Numbered from the stretch's first letter, positions 2,706-22,946 are shown. The stretch: 28,531 bases of DNA from an uncultured bacterium (GCA_963977445.1 CAXBPH010000068.1:1-28531); one strand, 5' to 3'. The notes: generated by a model from the letters alone, not told the origin. Translations and numbers: made by a program.

Positions 2706-3058
2706 TAGTTAAATTAAATGAATAAATCGAACGCAAAGCGCGTTAAGTATGCATAGACAGTTGAATAAGACATACGCACTCTAAAGAGGTTCCCAATGCG
2801 TCGAATGTCTCCCCAATCATGTCGGATCCCCCGATTGCCCCACACCATCCGACATGCAGCGGTTCTCTCCCATAAACACAAGCCGCAACATTCGGCGTGG
2901 TCTCCCCCGAGCCACTCCTCCCTCCCCCATCGCTCGGGGGAGACCCTCTCCTCTTTTTTTATATTCAAGGCGTAAGAACGGTTCTCGGAATTTAAGATGT
3001 TCCTTCCTTCCCTTCGTTCAAGGCCCCCCAACCACTCCGGTGATTGGGGGGCCTTTTT
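2706..3058 (+). ncRNA. Candidate multi-hairpin sRNA with C/U-rich loops
   Basis: Hairpins 2818-2856, 2859-2886 and 2899-2945 with loops CCCCCGATTGCCCC, CTCTCCC and CACTCCTCCCTCCCCC; lies between a sigma54-type promoter and a terminator; no credible ORF. Confidence 0.5.
3020..3058 (+). terminator. Rho-independent terminator
   Basis: AAGGCCCCCCA...TGGGGGGCC followed by TTTTT. Confidence 0.75.
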
Positions 3059-3114
3059 CGTTCATCTTTTTACTACCCACGTCTTCGTGTTTGCTTCCCC
3101 GGGCGAAATTCTCA

Positions 3115-3438
3115 GGACTGTCTCGCCCCCAGGCACCATGGCTTGGAAAAGAACACGGTGAAATGACTTATCACGTCGCAGCACCATGGTCCATGTAGAC
3201 GGGCGTGATTGTCCCGTTTTTGGCGAAAACGTCGTTGGACGAAAGGATACGTTCACCTTGGCGGAGTACCGTTGAGACGGTGTTGCTACCGCCGTGGTTG
3301 AGGGAGCCACAACGTCGACCATGGCAACAACGGGACAGCCACACCGATCATCATTTGCTTTAGATTTTTTCCGTCGAAGTGCTAGCCCACCCGCGTCCCT
3401 CGCCTAATTTCGACGTGTGGTGAGGCAGTCCCCGAGTG
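3115..3438 (+). repeat. Long structured RAYT-flanking repeat, copy A (324 bp)
   Basis: Direct repeat of 4136-4460 (about 43 differences by hand alignment); terminal inverted repeats GGACTGTCTCGCC / GGTGAGGCAGTCC. Confidence 0.9.
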
Positions 3439-3452
3439 TCGCGCTCACTAAT

Positions 3453-4088
3453 TCACCTCCCCTTTCTCCAGATTTCGACTTGCTTGAGGAAAGCGGCGTC
3501 TCGACCGAGTGGTTGACCTTTCTGGGTGTGGCGACGAACTGCCTCGGCTGCTGCGGTATTTTTGCTAAGTCCGCCTAAAGCCTCACGCCATTCCTCGCCA
3601 GAATAACGGTCAAACCATCGTCTCAGATTAAGCAACCGGTCCCCTTTTCCACCTATGTGAGCGGGTGCGCTGGACCACGGATACAACCACGCGTCAGAAA
3701 CCATATGTGCACGTACGGGATTGAGCTCGGCATAGGCGATGGCATTGACCGTGTGTTCGAGGTCCATAGGACACGAAAAAAATCGGCTTTGCCACACGTG
3801 ACCGCTTCTCAAATACTTGGCGTTAAAATAATCTGCGTATTGCTGGTGGGTTCGGCTGGCGGTGTCGGCGAGTGACGTCTCCGTATGGGGGATAGCAACC
3901 AAGTGCAAATGATTGGACATAATGCAGTACGCAACGATTCTCGTACGGAAGAGTTTGCTGTGGCAGTGCAGCAGGTCGAGATACTTCTCTCTGTCTTCGT
4001 TATCGACAAAGACGTCTTGTTTGTTGTTGCCCCGTTGCGTCAGATGATGTGCTACGCCGGGTATGACGATACGCGCGGATCTTGGCAT
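3453..4088 (-). CDS. REP-associated tyrosine transposase (RAYT, HUH/Y1 family)
   Basis: MPRSARIVIPGVAHHLTQRGNNKQDVF, YCIMSNHLHL (HUH), GHVWQSRFFS, AYAELNPVRA (catalytic Tyr), YPWSS; start trimmed to the MPR Met at 4088 (211 aa). Confidence 0.92.
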   Translation of the reverse strand: MPRSARIVIPGVAHHLTQRGNNKQDVFVDNEDREKYLDLLHCHSKLFRTRIVAYCIMSNHLHLVAIPHTETSLADTASRTHQQYADYFNAKYLRSGHVWQSRFFSCPMDLEHTVNAIAYAELNPVRAHMVSDAWLYPWSSAPAHIGGKGDRLLNLRRWFDRYSGEEWREALGGLSKNTAAAEAVRRHTQKGQPLGRDAAFLKQVEIWRKGR

Positions 4089-4094
4089 GCAACG

Positions 4095-4123
4095 AGAATA
4101 ACGACTATTGCGGGATTGGTCAA
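4095..4123 (-). promoter_or_regulatory. sigma70-type promoter giving a probably leaderless RAYT mRNA
   Basis: TTGACC-N17-TATTCT followed by 6 nt and then the ATG; no Shine-Dalgarno. Confidence 0.55.
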
Positions 4124-4135
4124 GAAGAAAATGAG

Positions 4136-4460
4136 GGACTGTCTCGCCCCCATGCACCACGGCTTGGGAAAGAATACGGTGAAATGAGTCATCACGTCGC
4201 AGCACCATGGTCCATGTAGACGGGCGTGATTGTCCTGTGGTTGGGGCGAATGTCGTTGGACGTAGGGATGGCTTTTACCTTGGCGGAGTACCGTTGAGAC
4301 GGTGCTGCTACCGCCGTGGTTGAGGCAGCCACAACGTCGACCATGGCAACAACGGGACAGCCATACCGGTCCTCGTTTTCTTTCTCTTTTTTCCGTCCGC
4401 GTGCTCGCACACCCGTTTGTTTCGCCTCTCTTCGACGTGTGGTGAGGCAGTCCCCGAGTG
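4136..4460 (+). repeat. Long structured RAYT-flanking repeat, copy B (325 bp)
   Basis: Direct repeat of 3115-3438 with the same terminal inverted repeats; the GGCAGTCCCCG end motif is repeated again at 4461-4471. Confidence 0.9.
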
Positions 4461-4484
4461 GGCAGTCCCCGTCCGCCACAATAG

Positions 4485-11643: not shown

Positions 11644-12573
11644 TCACACTACGGTGAAAGGGAAATCCCACTTTTCAGGATAGCCATCCGTACTGAACGA
11701 GACTAGCAATTCCTTGTGCTTAATTGCTCGCGCTCGAGCGCCAGGCCAAAGATCTGTGCCGGACTTTCCGACCCTCACTGCATTTGACCGTTTCAGGTCG
11801 TATTCGGCCCACTTTCCATCGGGTCTTTTTAATATTCGCCTAATTCTCAAGTCCGCGTCAGTTATGGTGCTATTGCCAGTTAGATGTGCTTTATCTCCAC
11901 AAAGCATCTTGTCGAATGCGCTGGTAATAAGCACGTCGAACCCGACCGCGAGGGCATATGATTCTCTTACGAACGCCTGTAAATCGCTCGGATTCACCGA
12001 GGCGTTCACATTGTGAGCTGCGTCGTGCCTCCGAAGTGTGGCATTAATGAAAGAAGTCTTTGCATTTGGGATAGCCATATCTAGTCGGCTGGACAATGAC
12101 GTAATAAGGTTCCAAGCATCCTTTACTCCGAAAGTTTTTAGAATAGACAGGGTTTCTTCGTCCGTGAGATTGGAGCCCTCGAAACCAAGGGAGTATCGGG
12201 ATAACGCGAAAGATGTCGAATTGGAAGACGCAACAATTGCCGACTCTTCTTGAAGGAACTTTATACCATCCGCAGAGTATTTTTCCCTCTTGAGTATGCC
12301 TTGAAGGGCACCGCGTGTAGCAGCTTTTTTGAGCCTATCGGGCAGGTCATCAAATGGAATACATACTCTGTGAAACGAATCTAGGATCTCCCCGGTTCGA
12401 CGTCTAATAAAATGTTCCAACACCGCGAAACCAAGAATTGCTATGCCATTTCGAAAGGTCTTGGCACGCAGGTTGTGGTCTCTGTCCGATGGTGCGTTGT
12501 CTACAATATCTTCGTGCTCAAGAGCGAGTCTGAATCCGAGCATACCCGAGAGAAAATCAGACTGGGCACTCAT
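11644..12573 (-). CDS. HEPN-like nuclease (MAE_28990/MAE_18760-type) with C-terminal extension
   Basis: ILGFAVLEHFIR helix and RRHDAAH (Rx4H) motif; 4 bp downstream of the DUF262 gene. Confidence 0.72.
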   Translation of the reverse strand: MSAQSDFLSGMLGFRLALEHEDIVDNAPSDRDHNLRAKTFRNGIAILGFAVLEHFIRRRTGEILDSFHRVCIPFDDLPDRLKKAATRGALQGILKREKYSADGIKFLQEESAIVASSNSTSFALSRYSLGFEGSNLTDEETLSILKTFGVKDAWNLITSLSSRLDMAIPNAKTSFINATLRRHDAAHNVNASVNPSDLQAFVRESYALAVGFDVLITSAFDKMLCGDKAHLTGNSTITDADLRIRRILKRPDGKWAEYDLKRSNAVRVGKSGTDLWPGARARAIKHKELLVSFSTDGYPEKWDFPFTVV

Positions 12574-12577
12574 AAAG

Positions 12578-13657
12578 TTACACCGATTTCAACATGTTTG
12601 TAAGCGTCTTAATTCGAGATACAATTCGATCCGGATTTGAGGTAAATTGCCTTACGGCGTTCTCAAACTCGGAATTATCTCTTAAAAGGTCAATCGTCAA
12701 TTTGACGACCTGTTTCCTCTGAGTCACAGCCCTCTGTCGCTGCTTAATCGTGAGCAGTGAAGCGCTAATCATTTGCGCGTCATACATCCCTGCCAGCACC
12801 AAGTTTCGCCATTGCCCTTCATTGAATCGCTTGAATGCATTCGTTCCCCAGATTGACGCACAAAACTTCAAACTTGTGTTGAATTTATCCCGGAGTCTGT
12901 TTATGTAAGGAGACTTCTCGTGCTGATGAGCGTACATGAACATGTCCATGGAGAATCGCATCTTGCCTGAGAAATTCTCCCAGTATTCCGACAGAGTGAA
13001 GAAGCGGAGTACATACTCCGCATCCATCATTTCTCGATAGGCCTTTGCGCTATTGTCCGTTATTTTCAGTTGCTGTTTCAGGAATGGGTTTTCAGCCAAC
13101 TCGAATACTAGGTCATTGAGTTTTCCCCGATAGGCCACGTTCCTTATTTCTTGCGGCAAGAGAGGCTCTCCACCAGTATTCAGCCTTGTAAAGACCTCGT
13201 ACTTTATCTCGGGGTCTGATTGCTTAAGCAGAGTTACTACTCGCACATAGGGACGTATGTTCAATGCGTTCATAATCGATTTCGGCAAGTCTTGGAATTT
13301 TGCTCCCGTAAGTTCCTTGAATCTGCTTAGTGGAGCCAAAGAAAGGTCTTTGCGGAGAAACAAATAGATCGCAGTAAGTCTCTGCTTGCCATCGATTACA
13401 GAATAATTCCCGTAGTCGTCCTCCGCCAAATAAACTGGCGGAATTGGAACATTCAAGATGAAGGACTCTATCAATGCGGATTGCTTGTGGACATTCCAGC
13501 GCTCTCGTCGTTGATACTCTGGCTCTATATCGATCGCTTTACTCTCGATCATATCAGCCAAGGTTGCCAATGAAAGATCTGACGATTGGAGTACTAAACT
13601 ATCTTGAGCCTTCTTGAATCTAGCTTCAACCTTGTCTTTATCAATTACCTCGATCAC
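12578..13657 (-). CDS. DUF262 (ParB/Srx-like, GmrS-type) protein
   Basis: PEYQRRERW, LIESFILNVPIPPVYL, VIDGKQRLTAI, VFTRLNTGGEPLLPQEIRN. Confidence 0.9.
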   Translation of the reverse strand: MIEVIDKDKVEARFKKAQDSLVLQSSDLSLATLADMIESKAIDIEPEYQRRERWNVHKQSALIESFILNVPIPPVYLAEDDYGNYSVIDGKQRLTAIYLFLRKDLSLAPLSRFKELTGAKFQDLPKSIMNALNIRPYVRVVTLLKQSDPEIKYEVFTRLNTGGEPLLPQEIRNVAYRGKLNDLVFELAENPFLKQQLKITDNSAKAYREMMDAEYVLRFFTLSEYWENFSGKMRFSMDMFMYAHQHEKSPYINRLRDKFNTSLKFCASIWGTNAFKRFNEGQWRNLVLAGMYDAQMISASLLTIKQRQRAVTQRKQVVKLTIDLLRDNSEFENAVRQFTSNPDRIVSRIKTLTNMLKSV

Positions 13658-15403: not shown

Positions 15404-15504
15404 GGGACTGCCTTCGGCCGTGGGGTATGTGGGTAGGACAAAGGAATGTGCGCCAGCCTGTGGAAGACGCTGTCGGACGAGTTTTTCGGGGCCGAGGCTG
15501 TCCC
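15404..15504 (+). repeat. ~100-bp REPIN-like element, copy 1
   Basis: Ends GGGACTGCCTTCGGCC / GGCCGAGGCTGTCCC are inverted repeats; direct repeat of 15679-15778. Confidence 0.85.
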
Positions 15505-15678: not shown

Positions 15679-15778
15679 GGGACTGCCTTCGGCCCTGGGC
15701 ATGTGGGTAGGCTAGAGGAATGTGCGCCAGCCTGTGCACGGCGGCGGCGGGCGTGTTTTCCGGGGCCGAGGCTGTCCC
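15679..15778 (+). repeat. ~100-bp REPIN-like element, copy 2
   Basis: Same ends as 15404-15504; shared ATGTGGGTAGG and AGGAATGTGCGCCAGCCTGTG blocks. Confidence 0.85.
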
Positions 15779-22504: not shown

Positions 22505-22946
22505 GTTGATGCGATGAGCAATTAGTAGGGATGATTTATTCGATATTTCAAGTGCAGGAGTTATAAGGATGGCTCGATGGGTTCTTGCGAATCATGTCGT
22601 CACGTAACTTTTTGCAGATAAAACGACAAACCATGGACGTGCCGCGCGATCTGGTACTCCAGTTCGTGCGAAGGGGCTGTGGGACGTCGTTGGGATCTAT
22701 GTAGTTGTGGGAAGTCTTCAAGAGGTCATTGGGAATAGAGCATTGTGCTTGTGCTTGGCCTTGATGTGGAGACGTAGTCATACCTCCTAATCCGCGCACG
22801 AATCCTCCTGCGGCGCATCTTCGACCGGAAATACCGGATCGCGCGGCACGATTGGTGGGTTCCGTTTGTTTTGGCGGAGTGAGTCTTTGTTGGTGCCCAT
22901 GAATTGCCCATGAATCTTTTTTTATAGGTGCGACAAGGTGGGGGCG

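Follow-up and report, generated by a model that had tools for sequence, protein, structure and literature searches.

The closest described relatives of the locus that is analysed here are the TIRtron/TIRYT genes (Di Nocera et al. 2013, PMC3733652), which correspond, as far as the accessible text of the sources goes, to subclass 2.1 of the TnpA-Y1 superfamily (PMC6006769) and to the Group 1 RAYTs (PMC5581495); the equation of subclass 2.1 with Group 1 RAYTs, and probably also with TIRYTs, is made in PMC6006769. TIRYT genes are described as being flanked by terminal inverted repeats (TIRs) with the motif GGGGWSAS, and the moderately abundant TIR families occur as singles, dimers or groups (accessible text of PMC3733652). 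The key motifs of subclass 2.1 are NH[VYF]H, W[EQ], Y[IV][EH]LNP and SS, together with a C-terminal extension (Table 1 of PMC6006769); a C-terminal HTH-like domain (Bac_DnaA_C, HTH_23, HTH_28) is reported for subgroup 2.1.2 and for the 20 TIRYTs that fall into subclass 2.1, and the accessible part of PMC6006769 describes another conserved C-terminal extension for subgroup 2.1.1.

In the portions of the literature that are accessible to us, REP-like sequences are not found for subclass 2.1 (PMC6006769), REPINs are assigned to Group 2 and 3 RAYTs only (10.1101/2021.07.10.451892), and Group 1 goes with inverted repeats (10.1101/2020.03.09.984088). Subclass 2.1/Group 1 is the largest RAYT-like group, and its REP-like partner, within the same portions, consists only of the TIR families of PMC3733652; in the literature consulted for this branch, we have found no biochemistry (binding, cleavage). 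For RAYTs, a resident nuclease with repeats that turn over has been described (PMC5581495, accessible text), and E. coli TnpA-REP is reported to need an unpaired stem position and to act on one strand (PMC8266576, accessible text).

Here, we have analysed a stretch of 28,531 nt, referred to as “the window”, that contains a nuclease gene of this branch; positions are those of the whole stretch, and the genome that it comes from is referred to as G000.

The nuclease gene and its surroundings

The nuclease gene (3453..4088) runs on the minus strand, from its ATG at 4088 to 3453, and encodes a protein of 211 aa; genes for DnaK and for a Gfo/Idh/MocA oxidoreductase adjoin it. A copy of a long repeat is located on each side, at 3115-3438 (left) and at 4136-4460 (right), the gaps to the gene being 14 nt and 47 nt, respectively; the copies have the same direct orientation, are 87.1% identical over 325 aligned columns (E 4e-110) and are spaced by 1021/1022. 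An earlier note on this DNA had described same-orientation copies of about 87% identity with a period of about 1021, located 14 and 47 bp from the gene, and had remarked on the absence of tnpB; our measurements agree on each of these points, with no match to the TnpB family among the 19 ORFs of the window that were scanned, 13 of them beyond the neighbours of the gene. The 13-bp terminal inverted repeats that it ascribed to each copy are present and are imperfect, with 11 Watson-Crick pairs and two G-T pairs among the 13 (plus strand).

The encoded protein is a member of the TnpA-Y1 superfamily (HUH/Y1): it matches PF01797 (Y1_Tnp) with 42.5 bits (cut-off 23), and the catalytic residues of the HUH fold, H60, H62 and Y119, are conserved without exception among the 30 proteins aligned. 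The motif residues comprise H60-x-H62, W99, Y119 (in YAELNP) and S139-S140. The predicted model (pLDDT 94) has TnpA-REP (4er8) as its top Foldseek match (E 1e-7), followed by IS608 and ISDra2, and a sequence profile search ranks TnpA-REP and IS608/ISDra2 in the same order. The name RAYT, used in the earlier note, is apt only in a loose sense: the score against NF047646 (REP_Tyr_transpos equivalog) is 56.9 bits, below the cut-off of 80. Judged by its motifs (NHLH, WQ, YAELNP and WSS; family consensus NHVH and YVELNP), the protein appears to fit subclass 2.1 / TIRYT / Group 1 RAYT, not the classic RAYTs.

The C-terminal extension of about 70 aa is helical in the predicted model, and the Pfam HTH families Bac_DnaA_C, HTH_23 and HTH_28 are absent from 30 of 30 aligned proteins at E <= 0.5. 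Most relatives, the TIR-flanked ones among them, end in a basic tail (LGRRLRALPVGRP, the GRP tail), which we take to resemble an AT-hook; this tail is missing in 18 of 18 proteins of the clade to which the window protein belongs. As a strict marker of the flanking hairpins (arms) that are described below, the loss of the tail is contradicted by one homologue (L255), which is flanked by arms and has kept the tail. The flank motif GGGG[AT][CG]A[CG] is matched at seven of eight positions by the inner ends of the window's arms (CGGGACAG), the outer ends carry a T at the position of the A, and the motif is exact in many relatives with simple TIRs. A promoter-like site (4095..4123, minus strand; TTGACC-17-TATTCT), located 6 nt upstream of the ATG, could yield a candidate leaderless transcript; the site is a consensus match only, of which two are found against 1.4 expected, and TTGAC is present at the equivalent place in most of the relatives shown.

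Several other features of the window are recorded here. A candidate for a conserved, C-rich, structured small RNA with a terminator-like hairpin at its end is located at 2790-2965 (plus strand); it is 78-85% identical in all five relatives searched, has compensatory changes in 6 of 39 pairs and has no Rfam match at gathering level. No Y1 gene occurs beside it in the five relatives, so the candidate is separate from the nuclease locus; in metatranscriptome X1 (contigs, 6% of words), one contig, the only one for the window, is identical over 2801-2937, outside the gene and the repeats, whose lack of cover in these data carries no information. At 11644-13657 (minus strand), a gene with a GmrSD N-terminal domain is followed by a weakly matching HEPN (RiboL-PSP) gene, possibly a defence pair, and at 22638-22850 an inverted pair of another abundant genomic repeat is found, with 21-mers that occur up to 38 times.

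The repeated unit is an arm of about 101 nt

The basic unit of the flanks is an arm of about 101 nt, not the 325-nt repeat. Each 325-nt copy is a doublet of two inverted arms, in which four motifs occur in the order GGGACTG ... CTGTCCC ... GGGACAG ... CAGTCCC on either strand; motifs 1 and 2 close one arm (ends GGGACTG...C[TC]GTCCC), and motifs 3 and 4 close the inverted arm. In the left doublet (3115..3438), arm 1 (3114..3215, plus strand, 102 nt) has the outer end (A)GGACTGTCTCGCCC and the inner end GGGCGTGATTGTCCC, closed by an imperfect stem of about 15 bp around a loop of about 72 nt; it is followed by a spacer of 116 nt (3216..3331), bounded by both inner ends, and by arm 2 (3332..3432, minus strand, 101 nt), which reads GGGACTGCCTCACC...GGTGTGGCTGTCCC on the minus strand and has a stem of 14 bp, in which positions 6 and 10 are T-T mismatches, and a loop of about 73 nt. 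In the right doublet (4136..4460), arm 3 (4135..4236, plus strand, 102 nt) is a copy of arm 1 with 8 substitutions, the spacer (4237..4353, 117 nt) differs from the first one by 13 substitutions and one indel, and arm 4 (4354..4454, minus strand, 101 nt) is a copy of arm 2 with 21 substitutions; neither arm has indels. A partial extra outer end (GGGACTGCCCACTC on the minus strand) adjoins at 4455..4471. The same order of the four motifs is found around the closest homologues, where the sequence between the motifs is unrelated, and a DNA search with the whole repeat has matches in 3 of 40 relatives, each of at most 30 nt, i.e. the repeat sequence is not kept between genomes. The earlier suggestion of a giant class of REPIN comes near the mark, with the arm rather than the 325-nt copy as its unit. 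Two further arms of about 101 nt, from another subfamily (GGGACTGCCTTCGG...CCGAGGCTGTCCC) and in direct orientation, are located at 15404-15504 and 15679-15778 (plus strand).

G000 contains 161 arms of 98-105 nt, 28 of which belong to the window's subfamily; in the histogram of arm lengths between 20 and 260 nt, the main peak lies at 100-104 nt and minor ones near 205-229 nt, where the ends of doublets would fall. Across nine genomes of the genus, the arm pattern has 161, 68, 18, 193, 53, 218, 43, 141 and 68 matches, against 0-2 for the reversed pattern, while 32 genomes outside the genus have 0-5; spacings of 106-135 nt yield only 7-19 matches per genus genome (2-10 in controls). Of the whole 325-nt doublet, G000 contains just one other complete copy, with 70-72% identity. 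Doublets and longer, BIME-like arrays are built from arms that alternate in orientation; 5' of the stem, CG or CA is found in most cases, and no GTAG is conserved. At 28 doublets, the lengths of candidate target duplications are as in shuffled pairs, with none above chance. In G008 (L313-L342) and G001, the doublets consist of an arm, a spacer of 101-103 nt and an arm, about 100 nt each, the spacer also being fixed in length in that lineage.

In the following analysis of the pairing of the arm ends, arms within a genome share descent, and the counts overstate their independence. Position 6, where any base was allowed, is non-Watson-Crick in 190 of 195 motif pairs and Watson-Crick in five; read from the outer end, its mismatches are mostly T-C and T-T, with 24 G-T. 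In 93 de-duplicated arms, selected by their 7-nt ends alone, positions 8-14 contain 25 G-T pairs against 4 A-C pairs, a one-strand bias that is also seen in G008 and G047 and that fits single-stranded DNA and RNA alike, so that it cannot separate the two. In the same arms, positions 12-15 covary within subfamilies: they pair in 258 of 332 cases, against 213 +/- 6 when the ends are shuffled within subfamilies, and in 121 of 160 (92 +/- 5) without the largest subfamily. Ends pair better within arms (191/232) than across the doublet (75/116 and 79/116), as they do in G008 (48/48 within, 18/24 across), which indicates that the arm folds on the strand that reads from the outer to the inner end, and thus that the two arms of one doublet fold on opposite strands. 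The doublet in the window has an alternative, nested fold on the plus strand, outer end with outer end and inner end with inner end.

Between the stems, length is kept and sequence is not: arms measure 101.4 +/- 1.4 nt, while the identity of their interiors is 0.45, against 0.43 when shuffled, and the information outside the stem is at most 0.7 bit per position. The multi-domain folded partner of 325 nt and the associated structured RNA that had been proposed earlier find no counterpart in the interiors, whose folding, be it as RNA or as DNA, does not exceed that of shuffled sequences (mean z -0.03 to -0.26; RNA alone -0.22 and -0.10; 60/93 arms); as a whole, the left copy is structured in DNA folding (z -2.44) and the right one is hardly so (z -0.75). 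The covariation term of a consensus fold of three copies is only -0.52 kcal/mol, and no Rfam family is matched, neither over the repeats (E <= 5) nor at gathering score in eight homologous loci. The G+T skew of the interiors tracks the local GC skew (rho 0.57, 149/161 arms) and exceeds that of 1813 other intergenic windows (0.056 vs 0.021), as expected of unconstrained, possibly more exposed DNA. The folding strand is C-rich in 73 arms and G-rich in 45, the arms being too dependent for an inference on replication orientation, and in a crude intergenic test mechanical ORFs cover 83 of 161 arms, against 85% of random windows. Two other accounts of the interiors have been rejected: captured spacers are at odds with the gradual divergence of the interiors within subfamilies, and hypermutation with 61 arm pairs in which 410 of 849 substitutions are transitions and 56 indel events occur. 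The net length difference is at most 1 nt in 60 of these 61 pairs, where compensating indels may be artefacts of alignment, and the 90th percentile of their identity is 94%, i.e. young, near-identical pairs exist.

A shorter class of arm occurs across the phylum, with 29-176 matches at 69-98 nt in 17 of 135 genomes (controls 2-21). We have measured the loops column by column in ten families from seven genomes, several of the sets being small (5-19 arms): the medians are 69-74 nt in four families (G000 twice, G008 and G027), with arms of 99-106 nt, and 33-35 nt in six (G037, G047 twice, G032, G011 and G053), with arms of 70-87 nt and stems of 17-27 bp. In the shorter class, the arm totals vary (70, 72, 75 and 87 nt) around a loop that is constant at 33-35 nt; that the loop stays constant while the stem varies speaks for a footprint on single-stranded DNA and against duplex spacing. 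A consensus stem is absent in 2 of the 12 arm families measured, and a permissive stem search in individual sequences returns the same two modes of loop length, with a wide scatter around each.

Arms, gene clade and the history of the locus

We have gathered 121 homologues, of which 62 enter the tree (identity of at least 41%, at least 195 aa, plus 6 outgroups). The window protein belongs to a clade of 18 members with modest support (82/83), which contains a subgroup of seven (100/98); when 135 genomes of the phylum were searched with a profile, no additional clade member came up above 329 bits. That close homologues share such flanks, as the earlier note would have it, is borne out: a direct repeat of 97-656 nt joins the flanks of 16 of the 18 clade genes, the upstream flank being disrupted or cut by the contig end in the other two, and at least one arm is located beside the gene in 18 of 18, with end sequences that vary from gene to gene. 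Direct repeats occur in 5 of the 44 tree rows outside the clade (L016, L102, L103, L108 and L139), not counting L003, where a flanking gene is duplicated, and L132, where the repeat is distant. In L101 and L130, the gene sits between inner ends, so that what stays constant is the arm and not the direct repeat, and the alternating order of the arms makes the direct-repeat layout a by-product.

The link of one gene with one family of arms is not general, since only one of 29 homologues from ten genomes rich in short arms is flanked by arms (L255, with the tail kept) and since no gene has been assembled next to the 74-nt arms of G046-G048 and G054. More distant relatives carry plain, near-perfect TIRs, mostly of 17-41 nt. 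Among the matches listed, the metagenome and viral relatives number 92, 85 of them with complete frames, 78 of which have the tail; at identities of at most 55%, a direct repeat of at least 60 nt is found in four of the matches listed and a T-type arm in none. Plasmid matches are distant (eight records, at most 37% identity). Two loci are noted for their duplications: in L003, a homologue of the simple TIR type, 290 nt of flanking coding sequence outside the TIRs are duplicated at 90% identity (upstream -499..-210 and downstream flank), and in L125 (G008:C1:5990341-6000413) two close copies of the clade gene lie 5.5 kb apart, each between direct repeats of 625-656 nt.

In G000, the nuclease gene is single-copy, its nearest paralogue (54% identity) being located on contig C184 with repeats of its own. 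In G003, the closest orthologue (65%) and the same oxidoreductase gene are 4.9 kb apart, a sign of long residence. Directly after that oxidoreductase gene, the same type of arm is found in G003 and G007, and no repeat is found in G005. At the sites of two other homologues, the gene is present in 0 of 4 and 0 of 3 informative relatives, often with arm remnants left; at the former (L095), repeat remnants stay in place and one collapsed piece ends at the same junction. No recent insertion with a clean empty site has been found among these comparisons. As read from the sequences, the pattern appears to be that of a resident nuclease with repeats that turn over, not that of a jumping 1.3-kb element.

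Three further places bear arms or their relatives. In G003 (L152, G003:C54:3000-18800), ordinary genes lie between arm arrays, from the oxidoreductase gene to the nuclease gene, and one of them seems, to judge by its N-terminus, to be paralogous to a gene located 8 kb away. On contig C363 of G000 (about 200-280), an arm-like element of another family is located inside a broken nuclease homologue, where several codons are replaced, which suggests an insertion that removed target bases; on contig C173 (2500-4050), a homologue that has an internal deletion and simple TIRs adjoins a mosaic array, whose arms belong to two or more families.

Weighing the explanations and comparison with known systems

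The explanation that we consider probable, on the whole of the analysis, is a REPtron-like arrangement in the TIRYT branch: a long-resident, single-copy Y1 HUH gene within a short array of its cognate, non-autonomous, REPIN/BIME-like single-stranded DNA hairpins, which would have been spread by these nucleases. The arm would fold when the DNA is single-stranded, into an imperfect stem of 14-15 bp with a fixed pyrimidine mismatch at position 6 and an unstructured loop of about 70 nt; arms in alternating orientation give doublets, and a doublet on each side of the gene reads as a direct repeat. By analogy with the biochemistry of TnpA-REP and IS608/ISDra2, the protein would recognise the mismatched stem on one strand, nick near the GGGAC foot of the single-stranded arm through Tyr119 and, with the strand rejoined elsewhere, the arms would be copied and reshuffled. 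With less weight, the loop may be a measured single-strand footprint of one or two units of about 35 nt.

The arms could instead be duplex, MITE-like elements, whose ends are double-stranded binding sites at a set distance and whose movement would be due to this protein, working on duplex TIRs, or to a different transposase. A fixed spacing is typical of duplex geometry, and the distant relatives do have plain, near-perfect TIRs. Inverted ends with a free interior are, moreover, the layout of MITEs (accessible text of PMC3733652). We nevertheless regard this account as unlikely: near-perfect TIRs and target duplications are the marks of a MITE, whereas the ends of the arms are systematically mismatched, with position 6 avoiding perfect symmetry and a G-T bias on one strand (in G047 and G008 as well), and target duplications are at chance level; duplex phasing would also not yield a constant loop of 33-35 nt within total lengths that vary from 70 to 87 nt. 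Rather less credence is given to the account in which the arms, once spread by the nuclease, are now kept for a host function, e.g. as landmarks of the replication fork or the nucleoid or as 3' end signals, the fixed loop reflecting that function. It would suit interiors that are saturated yet kept in length, arms that are abundant in genomes without an assembled flanked gene, and repeats that persist where the gene is absent; the end sequences, however, differ between genes together with the flanks, and the young, near-identical pairs are as expected of ongoing copying.

A transcribed repeat, i.e. a structured RNA that serves the nuclease as partner or guide, is improbable in our judgement, even though the wobble bias (of G-U type) fits RNA too, arm 2 is located 20 nt past the stop codon in its folding polarity and could be included in the mRNA, and a nested consensus fold of three copies has 6 of 89 pairs changed on both sides. 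Against it stand the shuffle-like folding and the low information of the interiors, their composition, which follows the local replication skew, the weak covariation term and the negative Rfam searches; in addition, a single transcript has only one arm of a doublet in the right polarity, given that the two fold on opposite strands. Still more improbable is a composite mobile unit, in which the gene and both doublets would excise as a circle of about 1 kb through the direct repeats. Homologues do occupy different loci, the L125 homologue is tandemly duplicated between 625-nt repeats, and the L095 site is gene-less in four of four relatives, with the collapse at the same junction; ordinary homologous recombination, however, accounts for both loss and duplication, the single gene copy and the orthologue near the same oxidoreductase gene speak for residence, the two flanks have diverged at 13% of their sites, and the L101 and L130 loci are not bounded by complete doublets.

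The surprising part of the explanation preferred here, a resident nuclease with its hairpin arms, is the loop rule: loops measure about 34 or about 70 nt, whatever their sequence and however long the stem. E. coli SSB occludes 35 or 65 nt (10.1101/2020.12.05.412478), and attC hairpins are shaped by their interplay with SSB (PMC5737091), according to the accessible text of both sources. It is conceivable, if doubtful, that the loop is measured single-stranded DNA, the stem closing one or two units of about 35 nt, as around SSB in its 35- or 65-nt mode, with the Y1 nuclease recognising a protein-filled hairpin at the replication fork and the hundreds of sites forming a host-level system of single-stranded DNA landmarks in the phylum; the match to the site sizes of SSB is numerical only and the link speculative. 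Should the loop be the footprint of a protein, this would amount to a recognition principle new to the HUH enzymes. For its part, the window's clade offers a candidate DNA substrate with many natural variants of strand, mismatch, stem and loop size, so that what domesticated nucleases cut becomes testable with short oligonucleotides. The enzyme family and the TIR repeats are already known; the fixed-loop rule is apparently new, in that we have found no account of fixed-loop arms in the literature covered, which consists mainly of journals outside subscription and of PMC3733652 apart from its Figure 9 and Additional file 5. A GGGACAG(N)15TGTCCC motif of Bifidobacterium (PMC5217627) was set aside, having a 15-nt gap and no link to a transposase.

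Among the known systems, the IS200/IS605 elements (IS608, ISDra2) share with the locus the Y1 HUH fold and imperfect hairpins that mark one strand; unlike them, the window's gene is single-copy, lacks tnpB and has Y-x-x-x-NP instead of Y-x-x-x-Q, and its hairpins are much larger and in inverted orientation. Integron attC sites resemble the arms as folded single-stranded sites with unpaired bases, strand choice and a variable interior; they are read, however, by the tyrosine recombinase IntI, not by an HUH nuclease, and their length varies widely, whereas the loops of the arms are fixed. The likeness to REP/REPIN/BIME sequences and their RAYTs (E. coli TnpA-REP, PDB 4ER8; Pseudomonas REPINs) extends further: a single-copy resident Y1 gene whose flanking repeats are also dispersed, a unit of about 100 nt with conserved ends and a variable middle, as in REPINs, arrays of alternating orientation, a conserved stem mismatch, no target duplication and several gene-repeat families per genome. 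Yet the arms have no GTAG/GTGG foot and are not the classic palindromes of 20-40 nt with 5' GT[AG]G, their two unlike ends pair across a loop of 34 or 70 nt instead of forming separate small palindromes, and the protein lies below the NF047646 cut-off, unlike the classic RAYTs of Groups 2 and 3. With the TIRYTs, the locus shares the HUH, WQ, Y-x-ELNP and SS motifs, the C-terminal extension, a flank motif similar to GGGGWSAS and, going by the accessible text of PMC3733652, the occurrence of the repeats as singles, dimers and groups; it differs from them in the absence of a Pfam HTH domain (30/30 proteins), in the loss by its clade of the basic tail of the TIR-flanked relatives, and in flanks that are doublets of imperfect hairpins of about 101 nt, with unlike ends, a fixed loop and 18-218 copies per genome.
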